The notes beneath the pieces are model-generated. The model was given only the letters and a program-made list of their open reading frames with translations, ran no database searches and was not told where the DNA came from. Shown here piece by piece: positions 18,778-36,400 of a stretch of 64,000 bases of DNA. The translations under genes were made by a program, and so were the position numbers. Numbering within the stretch: position 1 is the first letter of the stretch; each line of letters starts with the position of its first letter. Source of the stretch: Podarcis gaigeae (Eukaryota); the NCBI GenBank assembly GCA_964106915.2, contig OZ066927.1. One strand, written 5' to 3'.

Positions 18778-19946
18778 ACGCCGACACTCCCAAGACGGGT
18801 GGCTTGTGTGTGTCTCTTTGGAGGGAGCCGCTTGGGGGTCTCTTGGTGTGCCTTTGTGTGGGGGCAGCTTGGGGGGTCCGGGAGGAGGAGGAGGAGGCAG
18901 CACAGAACAGGGCTAAGCTGGCAAGAATTCCTGAAGCACAGCTGTCCTGCATATTGAAAGGCCTTCTTGCTGCACAGTATAGAGGGGATTCCGTAGGCAG
19001 AATTAGCAGCTGCACTAGAAAGGACTTAAAATGCACCTGCTGGCTCAGGCCACTGGAAGCCCATCTTGTCCAGCGTCTTCTTCTCACAGTAGCCAACCAA
19101 GTGCCCCAGCGGAAAGCTTGCAAGCAGGACCTGAGCACTAGAGCACTGTTTCCTCCTGCCGTTTCCAGTAAGGGCTATATAACTGCTAAGAGAAGCTGCA
19201 GGACATCAGAGACACAAAGGGAGGGTGTCTGAAAACCTGTGGAGGTCTGTTTGTGTGAGAAGGAAGCAGTCTTTCCTGAGGCAGGGGCATTTTGTTCAAA
19301 GAGGAGGACAGCTTGGCCACCATCGCAACATCTGTTCTGGGTGGTTGGTGGAACATGTTTTTGAAGTGAAAATCACAAAGCATCATATAGAACAAGGGGA
19401 GCTAACACGCTCCCTTACAGATGTTTTTGGACGCCAATTCCTTTTGGCTCCATGTAGCCTGCCTGACCGATCTGGGATGTTGGGAGTTCTTCCAGTTGAA
19501 CAACATGGGAGGCACTAAATTGACTACCCCAATATGGATGAACAAATCTGGCCTTGCTAGACTTTTGGAGTTCTTTTGAGTGTGTCAACAAACACGTGGA
19601 TCCTGCATACTTGTATTTTCAGTAAGGCTTTAACAGACGCTTGCCAAAGGCTCCTGAGCAAATTTAGCAGCCTTGGGGTGAGAGGACAGCTCTTCTTTAT
19701 AGGTCAGGAACTGGTTAAACAACACAAAGCAGAGAGTAGGAATAAACCAGCGATTCTCAGAGGAGAGGGATTCTCTCCTCCCCCGACTCCTACAAGGCAA
19801 GGGCCTGCATTGGTGCTGGTGCTTTTAACTTCTCCCTCAAGGATCTGGAGGTTGGAAGGAGAAGCCACCTTAGATGCCATTTTGGTGTGGGGTTTTTTTG
19901 GGGGGGTATGGGTGTGTGTAAAAAGCAAATTATATTGTGCAGCACC

Positions 19947-20703
19947 TGTCAGAGTTGCCTCTAGGTCCCAGCTCACAGAGGACCAACGCTAGTCAGTAAT
20001 AACGTATAAAAGTCTTTATTGAAGATTAGTTTCGATTTCCAAACCGCAGCGTGCAACTCTACATCTTAGAACCTAGACCGGCGAAGCTCCATCTGAGTCT
20101 CCGCCTCCTAGACACCAGTTTAAGACTCTAGCCTTATTCTACCTCTTCCGTTGTTCTTTCCTCCTCTGGGTCCTTCTGCCCCCTGGGGTTTCCTCCTTTC
20201 TGGACTCTTCTGACGCTGACCCCCCTGAGTCTTGCCCCTCCTTCCGGCGGGCTTTAGGACCTGGCTCCCTATCCGGGCTACCTGCTGTGCCGCTCGCCTG
20301 TACATTTGAACTTGGCGCGCGCGCCCAGCCGGTAACTTTCCTCTTGACCGTTTCCCCGCTCTCCGATGGAGGCGTGGTCAATCCTGACATCTCCTCTCGC
20401 TGGTGGTGAGAACACTGGTCCCGATGCCTGGGACTCCTCCCCCCCACTGCGCTCTGGTGGGGAAGCTGGTCCTGATTTCCAACTGCTGCTCTGGGAGTCC
20501 CCGCTGGCCCCTTCCTTCTGGGGTTCCCCCTTGGCACCCCCCTTGCCCTGGCCATCGGCGCTCCCTTCTGTGAATCTTCCGATTCGCTGGAGAGGCTCAT
20601 GGAATCCCTCTGACCACTGTCACCGCCTACGCTCCCCTCGGATTCCTCCCCCTCGCTCTCCATTTCCTCCCTCTCCTGTGCCTCTGCTCCTGAGCCCCTG
20701 ACA
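19947..20703 (-). mobile_element. Solo LTR (757 bp) of an LTR retroelement/ERV
   Basis: Termini TGTCAG...CTGACA; 6-bp TSD AGCACC at 19941-19946 and 20704-20709; AATAAA on - at 20020-20015; CpG-rich. Confidence 0.85.
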
Positions 20704-21857
20704 AGCACCCTAAATGGTTCTCTCCAGGTTTGGTGAATAGGCAAGAAAATGGCAAATGCTGCCAAATGTAAATTGATACGCAAAGAACAGAACAAAAACT
20801 ATGCACGCTGCCGTGGTTATCAAGGAGATACATATGGAATACTGTGTGCAGTTCTGATCTACCCCAGCGAGTTGAAACACCTTCATGCAAGGAAAGACAA
20901 ATATTGGTAGCTGTTCAGTTTGGAGGGGGAAGGCAATTAGTGAGGAGCAGAATTACAGAGGGTTTCACAGTGTGGAGATAGTTTTTCTGCCTCTCACATA
21001 ATTTTAGAACTGACAGCTGCCAATGAAATGGACTGGACTAGATTCGGGATGAGTGAGAGGAAGAACTTGCACATAATTGGTTGTGATGGGGATACAGAAT
21101 TTCACAGGTTCAGAGGTGGGATTCAACAACCACAGTTGCAGGAGCCAGCTCTTTCCCTCACCTTGAGGGTCTCCCAATTGTCTGGCCTGTGTTGGTGGCC
21201 CAGCTAGAAGGTTGCTCTGCTCTTGCACTCTTTGTTGGTGTTCCATATCTACAAGGGAAACCAGTTGTTTTCTAGGGTGCCATTCTCTTCTGGATTCTTT
21301 TGCTCTGGACTAGGTGACCCTTGGGCACCTTCCGACTCTTAAGATTCTTTGATTCTATGGCTCATGAGGAACGTTACACAAACAGAGGCCAAATCCTTGT
21401 TCCTGTGCTGCAAACAACAAACCTGAGCAGTTTTCTGGAAATGCCGTTTTGAACAAAAGGTATGTGGACAACAAAGCAGGTTGTTCTGTTCATTCCCCAC
21501 CAAGCAAAAAGGAGATAAACTCTTTGGCCTGCCCTTCCCTGACCCCTTCAGGCCTCTGCTGTGTGGGGCGAGGGAAGCAGCAGGAGCAAGGCCCAGGCAG
21601 GCAGCTGCTCTGGAATGCCCCCAGAGGGGCTTTGAGGGAACAGAGCAACCCTTCTCCTTCCCTTGACCTATGGAGCTCAGTGCCATTGGGCCGGGGAGAC
21701 ACTGGGTCATGGATGCTGGTGGAGGAGCAGAAGCCCAGCTCCCAAAAGGCTGGAAGAGACCTCGGTGGTGGGTGGAGGACCAGGCCTGGGCGCTTTGCCA
21801 GTGCATCAGTCAGTGGAAGCAGGACAGGAGCCCCTTCTGAGTCGCAGTTAATGTGGC

Positions 21858-24478: not shown

Positions 24479-27400
24479 CTGAGGAAGCACAAGAGACAGG
24501 CTGGGAAGGGGTTCCCTGGTGCTCTGGCCAATCACAGCAGGGACAGGAAACGAGGCAGCTACCTCTGGCTAACAGAGCATCCCTTGCAGAGGCAGAAGGA
24601 GGTTTGCTGCAGGAATGGGTCAAAGGAGCAGGCTGGAGCTAATTTTTCCAGCAGTTGGAGCAGATCTGGTGGAGGTGAGTGGGCCTCCCTCTTTGGACTT
24701 GGCTCAGAATGATTCTAGGCCAAGGAGAGGTGGCTGGATGGGCCAACGGAGACAATGTCTTCCTGGCCAGATGAGACCAAGCAGTAACTGAGCACTGGCT
24801 TGCCTGGTGGGCATAGGGCCAGGACTGACTTAGGCAGTTTCCCTTCAAGTGAACAGTTCTTGTTGCACTGAGAAGTCATACTTTGCAGAGAAAGCAAGCT
24901 CTTCATGAGCCATGCTCTGCTGTAGCCCTTAGGCATGCTTGCAAACTCTCGCCCTCTCCTCCCCCCACTGGCTCCACAGAGAAGCCAGCCCAGCCCGTAC
25001 CTGCAGGTTCTCCCCCCACTGGGCCTTCCCTTCCAGGAGGGCGTCCAACACTGTGCGACTGGGCTCCCCGCTGCCTGGGTCGTTGCCGCTCATGACGTAG
25101 TAGGAGGCCCGGACCCTCTTGAAGAATTCCTGGTCCGTGTTCTTCCCACTGCAGTGATTGGGGATGTAAGCCAGGTCCACATAGATGGGGGGCCCAGGGG
25201 GCACAGAGGAGCTGCTCTTGGGGTTGCTGGAGACTTAGGGAGAGAGAAGAGGGAGGGGATATTAAACCAGCTGGTGGCAACTGGGCCGGGTGGTTGCTAG
25301 CCCATCAGCTCCTGGTGAAAATGCCCCAACTAGGGATCTCTCGCATAACATTGTTCTTATTTAAAAAAAATAGTAAGTTTTATTAATATTTTCCACACAA
25401 CAAGAAACAGAAAACAAAAAATAACAATAGACAAAACACAAAAACAAACATATGAAAAACAAATCCCAAACTTACAAATTAATAGTATAAACACTAAAAA
25501 GGAAAACAAGGGTTGACTTCCACCAATCCCACAGCACCTCCTTTACCTCTCATTGTATCTTCCTGTTTTCCGTATCACCTCAATCCTAGCATCTGGCTAG
25601 GATCACCTGGATGGTGATCCCTTTGCATCTCTTCCTGAGATCCCTCCAGAGAGATTCCCCCTCATAATAATGTATTTGGTAATAGCCACACCAGAGTGCA
25701 GAGTTTCAGAAGTGGAGATAGTGTATTTTCCACCAGGAAAAGGTAGGCCTGATTTGTCATCCATGCCCCAGATTAAATCCACAGGAAGTGCTTCTGGCAA
25801 TCTTTGACCCTAAACCAGGGAGCAGAAGCAGCACATCCTGCTTCTGGGAAAGTCTCCCCAACTTTGGGCAGAAGACAAACGGCTGGACAGCCAGAGGTGA
25901 GAGCACAGATGCCCCACAATTCCCGCCAAGAGGGCCAGGCCTCTGCTCAGTCTTACCTGGGCTGGTTTTGACGCCATTGACAAGGTTCTTGCCAGGGTTG
26001 GGGGGACCCGTCTCTTCTCCATGGGCCTTCAGGGGCTTCTCTCTCTTGGCCAGTGCTGGCTTTGGAGGCCGGTCTGGTGGCTGTTGCTTCAAGGGGGTCG
26101 GGGACCATTTCTCAGGCTTCCGGACAGGGGAAGAGGACTTGGGCTTGCCCAGCGGCTTCCTCACCCCTTTGTTTTTCTCCTTCAGATCCTTCTTGGATAT
26201 TTTGTCAGGCCTGCTCATGTTCTGATCATTGAGCAGCACCTCGGGGTCCATCATGCAGACATCTGGGTGTGGAGGGTGTGGATGGGGGTCCACCAGGGTG
26301 ATGGGTGGGGGGTCATGACCAGCTCTTGTGCTGCTGCTGCTGCTGCTGTGATGGGAGCTGCCCACAGCTTTGTCCACTGGGAGGAAATCGGCGTCTTCAT
26401 CGGAGTCCATGGCCGCGTCGGCTGTGATGGAGGGGCATTCCTCTGTTTCTGGAGGGACATCCGAGTCAGACTGGGAGGTGCCAGAGTCACTTGCAGAGGT
26501 GGGGGGAGTTTCTTCTGCTGTGGCAGGGGGTTGCCTATGGCCACCAGGGATGGATTGTGGCCTTCCTTTCACAGAAGGGTGACCTTCAGCCTGGGAACAT
26601 TCACTCTCCTCTGATGAATCCTGAGGACTGGGATTGATGAACGATGGGGACAGCTCTCCCTTCCTTTGCTTATACTCACACGAGAACCTCTGCCCGTACT
26701 CTGAGGTGGCTCCCAGAGATGGCTCCAACTCATGGGAGGCGTCACCATGATCCTCTGCTTGGCTGCCATGCTGGGCATCTGGAAAGAAGGGCGGGAAAGC
26801 TGGCTCACAGCTCAACAAGGAAGAGGGACGGCTTTGTCTCTCACAGTCCTCCTTCTCGTCATCCTCCTTCTCATCGTCGTCTTCCTCCTCGTCGTCGTCC
26901 TCACTCCTTGTTGCCCCTGTGAGATGTGGCCCACCATGGAAAGCAAGGGGGCTGAGGCTCACCTCTGTGGGCCCGTTGGCAGTGGCAGCTGCCTCCTGCT
27001 GGCAGTGGGGGGAAACAGCCAGGATGTCAGGGAGGGGAGTGGCTGCTGGCCACTCTCCAGGGCTTGGGGGCTGCTGTGTGCAGCTAACTGTGCAGCTGGG
27101 CTCAGACTGCTGAGTGGGCAGAGAGGGCAGGCCCAAGCCGGCAGAGGCATCTCCTCCCATTTCACCTGAAAACATCTTTGCAGAACCTGCTGGAAGCTGT
27201 GGGGACGTGGGTTGCTGTGCTCTCTGGGCATCTGGCCCAGCAGCTGTTCCTCGATAGGGGGGGGACAAGGGGCTCTCACTGACTGCTGGATGTGTTGAGA
27301 TGGAGGCCCTCAAGAAGGTTTCCTCAGGAGAGCTAGATGACTCTTGGGGTGCCCCAGAGAGAAGCTTCCCTCCTCCTGCTGTGAACGATGAATCCTCACT

Positions 27401-30400
27401 AGAAACCTTTTTGGATACCTCCAAGTATTCATCTCTCTTGCCCTTTTCAAAGGGGTCAGAATCAGGGATGCCAAAAGCGAGGGATTTGTCCCGTAAGTGG
27501 GATGAGAAATGTGCTTCGTGTCGGAACAGGATGGATGGCTGGTGCATGCCCAGGGAAGAGAGTTCAAAGCCCGAGGAAGAGCAATCCAGCCCTTTCGTCA
27601 GCAGCGCTGGGCCCTTTGGAGGGTCCTTCTCTTTAGCAGCAGAACCAAAGCAGAAGCCTTTGGAGTCAGTATCACCAAAGCCTTTCCCTATGGAGGCCTC
27701 TTCCTCCTCCTCTTCTTCTTCTTCCTCCTCCTCCTCCTTTTTGGAGCATGGCTTGCTTGAGGCCCACTCCTGCCTTTCTGGACCTGCAAGGCTGCCATAG
27801 GCAGCAACATCCTCAGCCTTCAAGGCTGTTCTCTCTTTCTGACTCTCCTCTCCCAACAATGCACCATAGGATGCTCCTTGCCATGTCGCTGATAGACAGT
27901 CCTCCTTCTCCAGTCCTGAAATGTCTGCATAGGGTTCCTCTTCCCTCTCACTGGCTGGCTTCAGAGCTGAAGGGGGCTCCCCTGGGTGCTTGGATTCCTT
28001 TTCAGACTTCTCCTTGGCCCCCTTCTCCAGCTCTGAGTCGCTGGTGCTCTCTTCTCCCCTTCTGGCTTGCTCATAGTACATATCCTTGGGCAGGGAGTGC
28101 TTGGGAGAAGGAGACCTTTGCTCCTGGCTGATGTTTGCATCTGGAGGGTGGGCACCTTCAACGTAAGGAGCTGTCTCCTCCTGCTTCAGCATGCCTGCCA
28201 CATCAGTGTGGGAGGTAAAGCCTTTGTCCCCCAGAGAGGCTGCAGGCAGGGAGCTCACCAGACTTCCTGGCAGAAGAGGTGAAGAGTCTGCAAGGCTCTC
28301 ATCAGGCTGTGGGTCGTCCTGGGCTGCCAAGCTCTGTGGTACACTGTGCTTCTCTGCTATCTGAAGAGGATGGCCCTGGGCATGGACCTCTGCATACTCA
28401 AAGGAGGGCTCTGCTTTGTCCTTTGGGGAAACTGGAGACGAGAGCTCTTTCTCAGTAGGAGTGTAGAGGCAAGACTCTTCTTCCTTGGAGGAGATGGGGT
28501 AAAGGGTTGTCCCTATCTTGAGACCCACATCTTTTCCAAGGTGGCCAATGCTAGACATGACAACATTCTCATAGATATCTGCATAATGGAAAGTCTTCTC
28601 ATGAGGGTAAGGAGTTGCTTCTCTCTCTTCCCCTTTCCCAAGAGTGTCAACTTTGGGTTCACAGAGCCCAGACTGACTGGGAGAGTCTGTGGTGCTGAAC
28701 CAGGAATGATGCTCTGCTTGGTCAATGGAGACTGTGTCCTGCAAAGGGGTTGCAAGGTCTCCACTTCCTCCAAGGTGGGTGGACTCACTCTTCCCTGGCT
28801 CCACAACTGCAGGGGCCCTGTCTTCCTGGGATCCTACTGGACTCAGCAGAGCTGTCCTCACAACCTGCTCCTTTTGGCTTTCCTCTGAGCAAGTGTGAGA
28901 TTCCACCTCAGCCTCCTGCTCTCTGTCCTGCATCTCTTTGGGATCCCACTTGCTTTTGTAGACATTATCACTCTCTGATCTCCTCTCTGTGGTTCCTGGT
29001 TGGAGTGTGGGCACACTTTGGTCTACTGCAGGGGACTTTCGCTGCTCTGGTGCAGATGCTTCTCTCTCCTCTTCCAAAGCAGGAGGCTCCACCACATAGC
29101 TGGACCATGGCTCTGTGGCCACTTCCTCCTCAGCTTGCTCAAGCGGGGAATCCTCCCTCCATCCTGTTCTAGGTGGAATCTTGACCTGGTGTGGAGGGGA
29201 CAGTATGGCCCATTCCAGGCCGGGTGTTGACACACTTTCTGGCCCAGGAGAGGGGGGGCTTATAGAGCCAGGCATCTTGGATTCCTTTGTGTCCAGGGCA
29301 CTGTGTTCAGCAGCTGCTTGTGGAAATGCCTGTGTTTCGTCAGATGATGTTTCTGGCACCTGCTGGGCCACAACCTTGTCACTCACATGGGGAAAGCGGT
29401 TCTCAGGAGGTGTCTCTTGCTTCAAAGTGGCAAAGTCTTCATGGAAGTGCCTGTATCCTGAGTCCCAAATGTCTTGCATGGCCAGTCCAGAAATGTCATC
29501 TTCAGACTCTGCCGCAGAGTGAGAAATCACTCCCTCTTCAGTCATGGGAGGAGGAGGAGGAGGAGCCTTTGTTTCATGTTTTTCTACTTCCTCATCCAAG
29601 AAGGTACATTCCCCTCTTTCTTTCCCATACTTTGGCTTTTGCTCTTTGCATGGCACTTCCTTCGTCTCCTCTGGAAACCACACTTTCTTCTCAGAGTTTG
29701 TGTCTTTCAGATAAATATCTTCCATTTCTGGAGATTCCTCTTCTTCTTCTTCCTCCTCCTCTTCAGTATCCTGCTCCTCTTCCAGCAACTGACGAGGCCC
29801 CATCTCCTCAGAGGAGACTTGCGAGGGCTCCTTCTCCAGAACTGGGCTTGGTTCTGTGAAGCTTGAAGACTTTGAACCTGGACTTTCTTTGGGGGAAGGT
29901 CTTGGAGATGGTTCTTTGATGGGCTCTTTTTCAGCTAAGGATACAGCTCTGGCATCTTCCATAATAGCATCTGCAGAAGACATTGTGAGGGTGGCATGAC
30001 TGTCTTGGAATGGATCCTTCCCATGGAATGAAAGGGAACTAAGTGAATTGTCTTTGGCCAAAGCTTCAGATGTTTTGCTTCCAAAAGGGCTCTGCTCTGT
30101 GTAAGACTGGTAGCTCATTTCAGGAGAGAATTGTTCTGTGAACACGTCTGATGAGGACTTCTGAGCAGGGACCTCTTTTGTAGACAGAGACAGAGCATCA
30201 GGTTGAGAACCCTCTCCTGTGAACAAGTGCAAAGAGGTTTCTTCACTAAGGCTCACAGAAATGTCACTGCCTTCTGGGGAAGTGTATTTGATAGCAACTG
30301 AGGGGGGTCCCTCTTGGCCTAAGTTGCGCTCTGTGAAATGTAGAGCATTCCCATCTTCTGGCAATTTTTCCATGGCAAAATCATCTGAACATTTTGCTTT

Positions 30401-33400
30401 CCCAGGAGTGTCTTCAATAAATGGGAACACTTTTGCTTCCTCTGGTGAAAGCGGTTTTGTGGGCACTTGTGAAGAACTCTCACCAAAAGCTCTATCGGAA
30501 GGTTCCTCCCACCCTTCTGGAGGAGGAATTTCAGCCGCAGAGAAGAGCACCTCATGGGCAGGACACTTCATGCTTTCCTGGGAGGCTTCCTCGGTAGTGT
30601 CTGCTCCCTTCAATGGAGAGCCCTCTTTGGGCTCTAGAAGTGTGTCTTTGGTGAGAGGATAAAGGTCAGAAATGTCCAGGGTCTCTTGCTTGTGGTAGAA
30701 GCTGATGGCCAGCTCCTCTTTCTCAAGAGGCAGTCTCCGATCCTCACCCTGGACAGGTGCAGATTCTGATACAGTCACACTTTCTGGGACAGGCTTGTCC
30801 TGAAGGACAGTTGATGCCTCTTTCTCCCCAGAAAAGAGCCCCTCAGTAGCAACGACCTCTCCTTCAAAAGCCCTGGAGATCTCAGTGGCTTTGCTGGGAC
30901 TTCTTTCTTCATCCCATTTCACAGGGGCCTCAGAAGACTTGTCAAACAGCTCAGCCTCCACAGTGTCCGATTTCTCCTCTACAGGGGACTGGTGGAAAGG
31001 TGTGTGCCCAGCGCTGGTGGGACCTGACTGGGTGGGAGATGCCATCTTGACTGTGCTGTCATCAGGGCTCATGCACCGCTCTTCAGCCTCACCAGAGCCT
31101 GCAACTACCTGCAGCAACTGGGTTTCTCCGTCGAGTATCAGCATGGCCTCTTGGGATCCTTCCACTGGCACTCCTTTTAAATCATCTCCCAGGGGCCCTT
31201 GCTGAGAAAACAAAGGTGCATCATAATGACCCTGCGCTCTCCAAGGCTTCTCAATATTTGGTGTTTCATCTTCTTCTTCCTCCTCCTCCTCTTCCTCCTC
31301 CTCCTGTTCTGGTTCCTGTTGCTGCTGCAGGCCCTTTTTACAGGCCTCAAGCCTCCTCTCACCTTCTGCTTGTATACGGAAGTCTTCTGGAGGTGGAGAC
31401 TTGAAGCCTTTGTCCTCCTCTAGTGAAGATGTGGGAGAAATGGTGCCAGCGGAGGGAACATAGTCCAGACCTTGTGTAGCCTCTGTTCTAGAGGAAGGGA
31501 TGCTGTTCACTGTATCCAGCAGCAAGGAGCTTTTGCCAGTATCCTCTGTCTGCGGTGCTGTTATCGAGGCAACAGACTGGTCCTCTGCAACAGAGGTGGC
31601 AAAAGAGGAGAGCTTGTCACACTCTGTGATGGATGTTGCTGAAGAAACATGCTCCTCTTCTGCCAAGGGGGCAGCCACAATGTTGGTGGGGTAGGCAAGG
31701 ACTGCAGGGTCTTGGCCAGCAGCTGTCATGGCCTGGATCCCGTGGATAGCTTCAAAGGAGCCAGTCTGGTCTGGCACCGCAATATCAGAAGAGCTAATAT
31801 CTGTCTTGAGCTGGGGCAGCCTCTCCTCCTGCTCATCGTGGATCTCTTCATCGGAGATGGTTTGCTCTGTCTCTGAGTAGCCAGGGATGGTCTCATCCTG
31901 GATGTAGGAGATGTGTTCTCCAAGTGGGGCTGGAGCGCTGCCCAGGCAGGATTCCTCCTCCTCCCCCTTGCCCATTCTTTGCTTCCCAGGCAGTCTGCTT
32001 TCCTCCTTGGCCTCTTTTTCCTTCCCTCTGGAGGGAAAGAGGGGACCTTCTGGCTGCTGGAAGAGAGAAAGCTCACTCTTCTCTGTCTCTTCCCTTTTGG
32101 CCTCTGCAAGGGGCTGTCCGGTCCCTTCCAGCTCTGCCTGTTCCAATCCCTTGTCTCTCCTGTCCATTTGCCTCTCTGCCTGGGTCTCCATCCACTTCAT
32201 TTCCAAAGCAGAATATTTGTCTTCCGAGTAGTCACCGGAAGCCTGCATTGGCTCTCTCTCTTCTCCTGCTTCTTTTCTGGAGACTTCTGCTGTTCTCTCA
32301 AGGGGCTCCCCCAAGGCTGCTGCTCTCTCATCAGGTCTTTTGGGCATTTCCCCTCCTCCCTCCTTGCCCGTTTCCTCCTCTGTTGCACCTTGGGACCAGG
32401 AGTCTGGGCCACTGACTCCTTCTGGGATCAGGTCTGTCTCCTGAGCAGCCACATCACTAAGCCCCTGCTTTCCTGCCTCTCCTTCTGCAGGACCAGGTGC
32501 CTCTGGAAGCCTGGCCTGCTTTTCAGCCTTCAGCTCCTCAAAGTCCTTGGTGAGGTCTTCTGGGGAAGACAAGACCAGCCTGTGTTCAGCCAAGCCTGCT
32601 GGTTCTGGGGGCTGGCTTGGTGGCTTCCTGGGCACAGGCAAGGCCTTCTTTGGCTCTCCATGGGCAGCGTCCTTCTCAGCTTTGCTGCGAGCTTTCTCCG
32701 CTTTGATCCGACCAGGAGCTTTTGCCTTGTACAAAGTCTTCCTCACTTCAGGGGTGAATGACTTCAAGTCTGGCTTTGAAATCTTTTTCAGCTCCGGCTT
32801 GGCTTCCTTCTTTTTCTCTTCTTTCTTTGACTCCTTCCTTTCCTCTTTCTTCCCATCGTCTTTCTTAATCTCCTTCCTCTCTTTCTTGATCTCTTTCTTC
32901 TCCTTGTCCCTTTTCTCCTCCAGCTTAGACACTTTCTCCTTGAGGTGCTTCTTGCCCATTTTGTCTTTGTTGTGTTTCCTTTTCTCTGCTTTGAGGGCAT
33001 CGCTGGAGTCCATTCTTACTTTCTCTGCCTTGGGGGGCTTTTCCAGTGGCTCCTTGGTCTTCTTCTCTGTCTTGGCCTCTTTGAGAACCTCGGACTTCAC
33101 CTCCTTTGCTCCCTCCTCAACACCTGCCTTGGCAGCTGCCGGCTTAGAAGACTTGAGGCTCTCCTTGCTGTCTGTCCTCTGCTTGATCTTGGTCTGCTTG
33201 AGTGCCAGGGTGGGAAGGCCAGAGGCAATTTCCTTTTGCGTAGCAACAGGATACTTCAGGAAATCCAAGTGCCTGAGTTTCTCAAGCCCTTCCAAAATCT
33301 TGTTTTGTGGTGCATTCCCAGGGAACAAAACTCGCACTATTTTTTCCGTTGGACTTGCTGGGAGCCACACAACCAAGGCGGTGATGGAGGTCAGGTAGGG

Positions 33401-36400
33401 TACAGAGATCTCCCCTTCCTTCCCATTGGCCAGAATGATGCCCGTCTTGGCCTTGCTGTTCCCAGCCCACTTCTGCATGAGGAACTGCATCTCCTTGCTC
33501 TCCTTGACTGGGTTCAAGACATACATGTCCAATTTACCAACACCCATTTTGTGGAACAAGGTGATGGGCTCAATTGTGTTGCTGACCACCCTGTACAGGG
33601 GCTCTGGCTTCACGCCCAGCCTGTTGAGGTACTGCAGGGTCAGGCTAGCCTCCTCAATGCTTCTCTTGGCCTTCATGGAAGACTCGGGCATTTTGAGCTT
33701 CTCAGGGACATTGAAGAAAACCACCCCAAGCTCAGGGGAGATGAGATTCTTCATCCAGTCACTGTAGTTGGTGGAGCCCTGAGACTGCTCCTCATCCTGC
33801 TCAGCGATCTTCCTCTGCAAGAGACCATTGATGCCAGGGAGGTTATCGGCCCCAATGTGGGTCAGGAGAACAGAGTCAATTCTGTCCAGGTGCCGCACCA
33901 GCTTCCAGAAACAGGACTTCCTCTCTGAACCGCCATCCACCAGGATGTTGAACCCATTGACAGCAAAGAGCGCTGAATCCCCTCTCCCTCCAGGGAAGAT
34001 GTAGCAGCAGGGCTTGGACAGCTTGAGGAAGCCCCCTGAGGTTGGGGGTTCCAAGAGGTCAAAGGGAGATGGGACATCCACTGTCTCAGAGACATACTCG
34101 GCAAACTCAGAGACCCCATCCATCTCTGGCAGAATTGGGTCAGGGTTCAGTCTCAGACTGAGAAGGTCTTGGAATCGGGGGTGTCCTAGGTTGCTCCAAT
34201 CTCCCTCTCCTAAGCACGACACAGTCAGGGAGGCCTTGGAAGCTGGATCTGTGTTGCTGAGAAGCTGGGCAACCTACAAGAGTCAGAAGCAGGCAATAGT
34301 CAGAAGCACCACAAAAGGTCCTTGACAAAAAACCCCCAAAATGTCTTGTTTAGTCAAATCCATGCAAGCTCAACTTTTAACTAGAACTGGAAACCTACCA
34401 GTCAACCTATGTAACTCACTATTGTTCTTGGGTGGCCAGAGGTGTCCACCAGATGTATCAATAATAGCATCCTGGAAATATGTTACTCTGTGTATGTGTG
34501 TGTGTTGGAGACTAATAATCTGAAAGGGGCCTCTGCAGGAAATTGAGTGTTTCCCAAGCCTACAATAAGCCAGGAGTTGGAATGCATGGTGAATAAAGTT
34601 CTGGTAACACATCCTGAATGCCTGGGAAGATTTGTAACATGTACAACAGTAGTAGCAGCAATCCTCATTTAAGGTGGTCCCAAACTCAGTACCCCATGAC
34701 ACTGCGGGGTGTTAATTTTAGGCAAAAGATTTTCCGAGACAAGCTGTGAAATAAGACTTAAGCTAGGACTAAAAAGAAGACAACAGCATGAGGATGGCCT
34801 CCAAAGCCACCTATGTCAGCCAGATTCCTACACATACAAATCCCAGGTTCCCCACCCACCCAATTTACCTCTGGATCTGCAAGGATCTCAGCAAATTTCT
34901 GATAGGTGAAGGTCCCAGCCTGCAGGATCAAATCTCCTTCTTGGTCTGTGCTCTGTCCACAGAGCACTAGCAGCTTGTAGGCAGAAGGGTCACATATCAA
35001 GGAATGAACCTGTTTGCAGCAGGAGAGACAGTTTCAGCTCCTGAGTTTTGGACTTGCAGAAATGCTGCCCTCACTCGGTCGTGTCTGATGAATGAGCTTG
35101 GGGAGGCAGCCCCATTGAGAGGCAGCTTTGCATCTTGCCTAAACATGCTTGAGTCTGGGCTCTAGACACAGCCCCATAATATCCCAGCCCTGCCTCAGGC
35201 AAGGTCACAGGAGGGGTGGCAGGGAACCTAAATACCCCCCCACACCTGGTCAGGATGATCTGTGCAGTCAAATTTAGCTGCAGGCAGAGAGGAAAAGCAG
35301 GAAGGCAGCCAGGTCCCTAGAAGTGGGGGAGGGAACTGGGTGCAGTCCTGAGCACAGGGCTTTGCAGGAGGGTCTTTGTTTTAAGGCCTTTATCTACTCC
35401 CCTTCATAAATTTTTATCCTGATGGGGCAGGAGGATGGTTTCACAAGGGATTTGTAGCTGGTTTGCCCCCAGAGTCAAGAAGCAGGCAACTTTTGCACCA
35501 TGCCACTGTAGCAACTCTTAGAGGTGTAATCCCATTGGTTACATTGACCCCAGGTAGGCAGGAACCCCAGAGCTTTACCTCTGACACAGTGCTCTGTTCA
35601 TCAGGGTTTACTAGGATGACTGTGTCCAGGTCCTCGCTCTGGTGGTGGAGGGTCCTCTGACCTAGGGAGACAGTAGAAAAGGCTATGTTCAAAACAAGTG
35701 CTCATAGTCAGAGCCCAAGGGCAAAACAACTGCCTTCAGAACCAGGCCATTGTGGCTATCCAGGAGAAGCTGGAAGGGCTGGCAGTTTCCAAGCTGGCTT
35801 CAGCTTTCCCTGCTCTGTTCCTGAGGAAAGTGACCTTCAGTAGAGCAGCCCAGACCAGCTACCTTTGAACTCCCACCCCAGGGAAGCTGCAGGAAGATTC
35901 CTTGGTGAGTGGCTTCAAACAACAAATGAGAACCAAACTAGACCAATACATTTTGGCACAGGAAGTATTGCTCTGCACAGTTTATGCTAGCCATTTGGGG
36001 GGCTGACTTCAGCTTTCATTGGGACAGAAAGTGATTTTGCTTTAGGGCTGAAAGGCTGCTCTGGAGTCCTGCAAATTTGAGATGTGTGCTGATGAGGAAG
36101 CTTCATCCAGCACTGCTGGATATGCAGATGTGTTTGGATGTTCAATGAGCAAGACATAAACATGCCCATAGCATGGATCTTGCAAATGCTCTAGCTTCGG
36201 GCAGCCCCTCCCCGCTCCTCAGAATTGTGCAGGCAGTTGTGAGTTTGGGAAATGAGCAGTGTGTGTGTGTGTGGTGAGGGTTCCTCATGAGCCTGCAGTG
36301 ATCCTTGCAAAAGAGATGAGCTGCCCAACCCAATACTTTCCCTGGGAGTCTGGGCTCCTGCTGCTGAGTTGTAAAACACTCCATGGGTTGAGCTCTGTGG

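Follow-up and report, generated by a model that had tools for sequence, protein, structure and literature searches.

The open reading frame in the U3 of a lizard solo LTR is very probably the C-terminal end of a chromovirus Pol polyprotein

The window, a 64,000-nt stretch of contig OZ066927.1 of the lizard Podarcis gaigeae (assembly GCA_964106915.2), carries on its minus strand the solo LTR of a young retrotransposon, here called family A (Table 1). The LTR sits about 5 kb downstream of a 2838-codon exon (25757-34273, minus strand), presumably that of a MAP1A-like gene, and what we take to be the start of a TP53BP1-like gene lies at about 62900 on the plus strand. A sequence-only reading of the window had described a 757-bp element with TGTCAG/CTGACA ends and an AGCACC duplication, a frame open from the LTR edge to the stop, and an ATG at 20663 yielding 174 aa, and all of these were found again in the letters. 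It had further proposed that the U3 encodes an undescribed accessory protein. The U3-encoded sequence is indeed conserved, undescribed and acidic-to-basic, but the frame is fused to Pol and does not form a stand-alone gene.

Table 1. Features of the solo LTR and its borders (positions in the window).
Feature	Position	Strand	Remark
Solo LTR, young Tf1/sushi-type Gypsy chromovirus (family A)	19947..20703	-	757 bp, TGTCAG/CTGACA ends
Target-site duplication, left copy, AGCACC, 6 bp	19941..19946	.	Matches right copy
Target-site duplication, right copy, AGCACC	20704..20709	.	Matches left copy
C-terminal 210 codons of Pol (very probable reading), U3/R-encoded	20073..20702	-	Family extent; broken in window copy
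ATG of the sequence-only reading, very probably an internal Met of Pol	20661..20663	-	Missing from 2/5 LTR families
Acidic Ser-rich block SESEDSQKGAP, conserved	20556..20588	-	Between-family comparison; presumed CK2-type sites
Stretch between two private gaps, other-frame reading in window copy	20389..20526	-	Copy comparison
Block with silent sites also unchanged, families A, B and C	20302..20320	-	19 nt; likely overlapping promoter DNA element
Arg/Lys-rich segment, helix predicted	20142..20183	-	Likely nuclear localisation or nucleic-acid binding (candidate)
Early stop, private to window copy	20139..20141	-	Absent from other family-A LTRs
Terminal hydrophobic-x-x-W motif	20112..20126	-	Kept in distant families; overlaps TATA-like box
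TATA-like box	20119-20124	-	Overlapped by hydrophobic-x-x-W motif
11-nt self-primer, complement of PBS	20084..20094	-	Located 30 nt past TATA-like box; would mark the U3/R border, where transcription is predicted to start
AATAAA polyadenylation signal	20015..20020	-	LTR sequence

Full-length elements are 6.5-6.6 kb long and contain gag (Retrotrans_gag with CCHC) and pol (protease, RT, RNase H, integrase and a Tf2-type SH3), with no env. In young copies, a single pol frame stays open through these domains, continues past the chromodomain and an acidic tail, and crosses the polypurine tract and the U3 up to a stop ~20 nt into R of the 3' LTR. This frame, counted from the protease to the stop in R, was unbroken in 7 of 14 elements sampled by position on C1 (1566 codons), in 3 of 8 family-B elements (1547 codons) and in one family-A element (1528 codons). 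The U3 frame begins in the interior, a possibility that the sequence-only reading had raised. Depending on the family, Pol runs 160-370 residues past the chromodomain, with 70-230 codons lying inside the 3' LTR.

The same fusion was found among annotated proteins. A UniRef search with the U3 peptide gave five hits among 6398 candidates, two of which were Podarcis muralis proteins (1498 and 813 aa) carrying the whole U3 peptide behind an integrase (71% identity, 100% cover), and a profile search of 1.84 billion representatives gave 10 hits, with 5 named clusters among the 8 looked up. All named protein relatives were from Podarcis, which sets no bound on the host range because repeats are usually masked before gene calling. 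The U3 peptide had no match in Pfam or the ESM Atlas, and the tail of a distant family retrieved only chromodomain clusters from the latter, at 0.81. Contigs from four putative RNA runs, whose RNA nature is a guess, covered all 30 bins, and none of the 15 joints listed, of 36, had splice-type ends; no weight is placed on this in either direction.

The frame from the chromodomain to the U3 was continuous in 22 of 46 distinct elements (A, 6/24; B, 5/7; C, 9/13; E, 2/2), and continuity went with youth, being seen in 13/16 elements whose LTRs differ at two sites or fewer, as compared with 4/16 older ones (Fisher p = 0.004; two mis-paired nested elements left out). Most breaks occurred in G-runs preceding the polypurine tract, at different runs in different copies. 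Assembly error is unlikely to be their main cause, as most young copies of family C have these runs too and yet remain in frame. The low continuity in family A speaks against too simple a picture; age-related slippage may contribute to it, together with the use of a frame-shifted copy as the query with which the family-A sample was drawn, a possible source of bias. Because the shifts hit different G-runs and the tree of elements is star-like and poorly resolved, a family-A sub-lineage that replicates without the U3 tail could also exist.

Three distant families, located by profile search and present in many copies in the same genome, show the same arrangement. In two of these, whose LTRs of ~412 bp were mapped, pol crosses into the U3 again, and in the third, the read-through shows as the same junction peptide. 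The distant families have 71-102 U3 codons (the RT region of one is 72% identical), and at the end of their tails stand basic residues and a hydrophobic-x-x-W motif, the latter placed over the TATA-like box. The U3 frame very probably forms the last ~200-210 codons of Pol rather than a gene of its own, in an element whose RNA is predicted to start at LTR position 613.

Comparison among five LTR families (65-89% DNA identity), in which the same frame is open to the same place, indicated that the U3 frame is under purifying selection. In all 10 family pairs, dN/dS in this frame was 0.21-0.31 (upper limits ≤0.51), whereas the remaining sense frames gave 1.3-2.9 and 0.7-1.0; this favours the conserved coding sequence for which the sequence-only reading had named dN/dS as a check. 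Among the closer pairs, gap lengths add up to multiples of three; for the distant pairs, gap placement by the aligner is uninformative. Constraint on the U3 part (0.27-0.32) is weaker than on the enzyme domains (0.04-0.14). One antisense frame, with the same third positions, contains only 0-2 stops per family (4/5 families have at least one), and for this reason dN/dS alone cannot fix the strand.

It is conceivable that the tail is translated but represents a merely tolerated charged spacer, with the signal of selection coming from promoter DNA and from the avoidance of stops. Several observations are in line with such a spacer: the U3 part can be as short as 71 or as long as 231 codons, frame shifts are common among family-A copies, the W motif and the TATA-like box occupy overlapping sequence, and across families A-C a 19-nt block shows no change even at its silent sites. 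However, constraint at the DNA level would not favour third-position change, which in the U3 frame exceeds change at positions 1-2 (mismatch 0.18-0.46 vs 0.07-0.29); the residues of SESEDSQ and SGPASPPERS are preserved through codon changes; and a stop before the LTR would be the simpler escape. We therefore consider a tolerated spacer unlikely. The 19-nt block itself resembles what we take to be adjacent E2F and CHR cell-cycle elements.

The predicted start of the RNA bears on whether the U3 could express a protein of its own. The PBS is not tRNA-like; in 36 of 44 LTR-plus-flank rows it is complementary to a 10-13 nt segment of the LTR located 30 nt beyond the TATA-like box. PBS and self-primer show matching changes on both sides between families (co-variation) and pair with each other in the predicted fold (fold z -2.4), which suggests a self-priming PBS that would pair with the 5' end of the RNA. 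The position of the self-primer would place the RNA start at LTR position 613 (window 20094), and consequently nearly the whole U3 frame upstream of the LTR's own start. The ATG of the sequence-only reading lies ~570 nt upstream of this predicted start, so that a solo LTR should not express the frame.

A separate small protein, released by the protease or translated from a spliced RNA in the manner of nef or sag, might nevertheless be an additional or even the main product of the U3 frame, which is in pol's frame. Met codons do occur early in the frame in every family, 43 of 59 family-A LTRs keep the U3 open though in many copies pol no longer arrives there, and the acidic disordered linkers might contain a cleavage site. 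Yet no Met is common to all five families, and the strong-context ATG proposed as the start is found in only 3 of them; the frame precedes the predicted start site; young LTRs remain open even without selection; and the fusion to pol is retained across six families. A separate protein is accordingly, in our assessment, very unlikely, and the frame is best read as the end of Pol.

The copy in the window is a damaged one. Compared with 58 other family-A LTR sequences, it is short of a single base near 20526 and of two bases near 20389, and these two gaps put ~45 codons into another frame. The two gaps and the early stop were each seen in 1 of 59 family-A LTR sequences, and the stop region has a single match in the genome, in agreement with the suggestion of the sequence-only reading that the TAG is a mutation of this copy; as it had also guessed, the frame of other copies continues for ~21 codons beyond. 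Its 174-aa protein, by contrast, is not the product of the family, and most of its Pro/Arg middle results from reading the stretch between the gaps in the alternative frame. The window LTR is likely a remnant unable to express the U3 frame.

The length of the frame was weighed against shuffled sequence, as the earlier reading had proposed. In dinucleotide shuffles (5000 per scheme), an ATG frame of at least 174 codons arose in only 0.4-2.5%, but an open frame of at least 187 codons in 1.5-13% when 3 frames were considered and in 4-18% when 6 were; the length is only mildly unusual because the U3 is 10% T. Length alone is weak evidence, and it is the comparison of copies that establishes the frame as real. 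A chance frame in a purine-rich, T-poor LTR, which the up to 13-18% of matching shuffles might suggest, is practically excluded by the frame-specific purifying selection and by the same frame having stayed open across five families, some with as little as 65% DNA identity.

The element itself is an env-less Tf1/sushi-type Ty3/Gypsy chromovirus, an assignment that follows from domain order, chromodomain, self-priming PBS and TGTCA ends. Its Pol has the order PR-RT-RH-IN with a Ty3-like RT, and its best PDB match is Ty3 Gag-Pol (E = 8e-135). The chromodomain at the integrase's C-terminus scores over the Pfam cut-off in the three distant families (E about 1e-11), with a predicted fold like that of HP1/CBX chromodomains; in family A it is degenerate (18.1 of 25.1 bits, under the cut-off), yet aligns with those of the distant families. 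Target duplications in 25 distinct solo-type copies were 5 bp in 22, absent in 2, and 6 bp in the window copy only; the length that had been taken as a class mark is peculiar to this copy. The accessory gene of an alpha/beta-type endogenous retrovirus, suggested by this 6-bp duplication and the good-context ATG of the window copy, has next to no likelihood given the 5-bp duplications, the 6.5-kb elements without env, the Ty3 match and a PBS that is not of the tRNA type.

Between the chromodomain and the LTR, Pol carries a further conserved feature. In all six families examined, the chromodomain is directly followed by a predicted helix with Phe as its last residue, 8-10 aa of linker and the sequence FxGF. 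This unit occurs twice in the three distant families, where the linkers are acidic, and its linker in families A-C is Thr/Ser-rich instead. F, F, G and F are invariant and x is variable in 13/13 aligned segments (an alignment that left out two older copies with a changed motif), and F-x-G-F is kept in 62 of 63 occurrences in families A-E, the exception having a stop at x. The motif pattern appears in 0.03-0.4% of shuffled tails. The helix just before the invariant Phe was predicted in two models at low to moderate confidence, and the AlphaFold prediction of the family-A tail (mean pLDDT 36) is a sign of disorder only. Counted from the LTR, the motif lies ~140 residues upstream in the same tail, and the window's element does not include it.

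This architecture is that of the TND-interacting motifs (TIMs), for which two reports give a helix, an acidic or Ser/Thr linker of 8-16 aa and FxGF in a disordered region (PMC9987994; 10.1101/624023); among TIMs, FxGF is tied to LEDGF and HRP2 (PMC9987994). The TIMs of MLL1, JPO2, IWS1, POGZ and fly JIL-1 share helix, linker and FxGF with the lizard elements, but the lizard motif sits in the integrase of a retrotransposon and has a non-acidic linker in families A-C. PDB searches with single motif peptides and with the 13-row profile retrieved no known TIM and no LEDGF-motif fusion chains. The lizard genome encodes the LEDGF-domain exons. From the architecture of the motif and its conservation we infer putative TND binding.

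These elements point to the following model. Genomic RNA would begin within R of the 5' LTR, at LTR position 613, and would hold the U3 frame only in its 3' LTR part. Gag-Pol would be produced through a -1 frameshift, and after proteolysis the integrase would likely keep a tail of ~420 residues, predicted to be disordered, that comprises the chromodomain, the FxGF motif, acidic Ser-rich blocks and the basic U3-encoded end. U3 is copied into both LTRs, and where the interior is later lost the frame stays behind, as it has in thousands of LTRs. For the tail, the most likely roles are entry into the nucleus and tethering to host chromatin. It is plausible, at slightly under even confidence, that helix-linker-FxGF binds a TFIIS-N-terminal domain (TND), such as the LEDGF/HRP2 IBD, and that the basic end serves nuclear import.

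The gag and pol frames overlap. The overlap of families A and B contains the heptamer G GGA AAC (L064:2428 and L094), which we take to be a likely -1 frameshift site, as in PEG10; a search for this pattern in the overlap of family C did not find it.

HIV integrase binds the same host domain, in LEDGF, but via its catalytic core. We tentatively propose that lacertid chromoviruses have evolved host-type TIMs to dock on LEDGF/HRP2 or another TND protein, which would make them the first retrotransposons to reach the tethering factor of HIV by motif mimicry, with chromodomain and LTR-encoded extension jointly steering insertion, possibly to chromosome ends. No report of an FxGF motif in a retrotransposon was found in the literature searched. 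A candidate LEDGF/HRP2-binding motif in all six families makes the choice of insertion sites by vertebrate Gypsy elements a testable question.

Genes overlapping the polypurine tract or the U3 of the 3' LTR are familiar from HIV nef and MMTV sag. Those, however, are separate genes of retroviruses, expressed from spliced RNAs, whereas the lizard frame is fused to Pol. A conserved open frame in a solo LTR can thus be a Pol tail, which corrects a tempting misreading of such frames as genes. With Tf1/sushi chromoviruses, the lizard elements share the CCHC Gag, PR-RT-RH-IN order, chromodomain, overlapping gag and pol, TGTCA ends and the self-priming PBS, a mark of this group (10.1101/2022.12.06.519325; PMC3601003); they differ in the extension of Pol past the chromodomain and into the 3' LTR. 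The literature searched, of which Butler et al. 2001 and the Repbase notes were not part, contained no pol-into-LTR read-through in vertebrate chromoviruses. The precedent comes from plants, where pol extends into the 3' LTR in CRM group A and in the beet chromoviruses Beetle and Bingo (PMC3059260, PMC3605345). In CRM group A, which belongs to another clade and host, a CR motif located in the LTR replaces the chromodomain and the PBS is of the tRNA-Met type, whereas the lizard elements keep the chromodomain upstream, followed by FxGF motifs, with an acidic-to-basic extension encoded by the LTR and a self-priming PBS. The layout of plant centromeric elements is now shown in a vertebrate chromovirus, and the novel part is the helix-linker-FxGF unit between chromodomain and LTR.

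The genome contains 4156 LTR starts of family A and its sister families, and at least 40 copies, among 2464 candidates, are 98-100% identical to the window LTR. LTRs are concentrated at chromosome ends and within telomeric repeat. Such crowding hints at targeting, and it might also result from selection after insertion; tethering to active gene bodies would predict a different pattern.

Sixteen LTR 5' ends lie directly in telomeric repeat (for example, C3:122609787, C17:6180, C25:56906269 and C31:13872646), 15 of them in one register per strand, where ~0.3 would be expected from the 4156 starts and ~115 kb of repeat; some of the 16 may be segmental copies, and not all are assigned to a family. 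Seven LTR starts fall in the first 65 kb of C1. C32 is rich in elements of these families, and at 24.7-27.4 Mb (L031, L032, L035 and others) a single full-length insertion recurs many times with the same flanks, pointing to amplification by segmental duplication. Elements are often inserted in one another (L052, L059, L062, L063, L066), and at several loci (L061:6200-7701, L067:4850-6400, L103, L104) LTRs stand in tandem or back to back, a few bases apart and with no interior.
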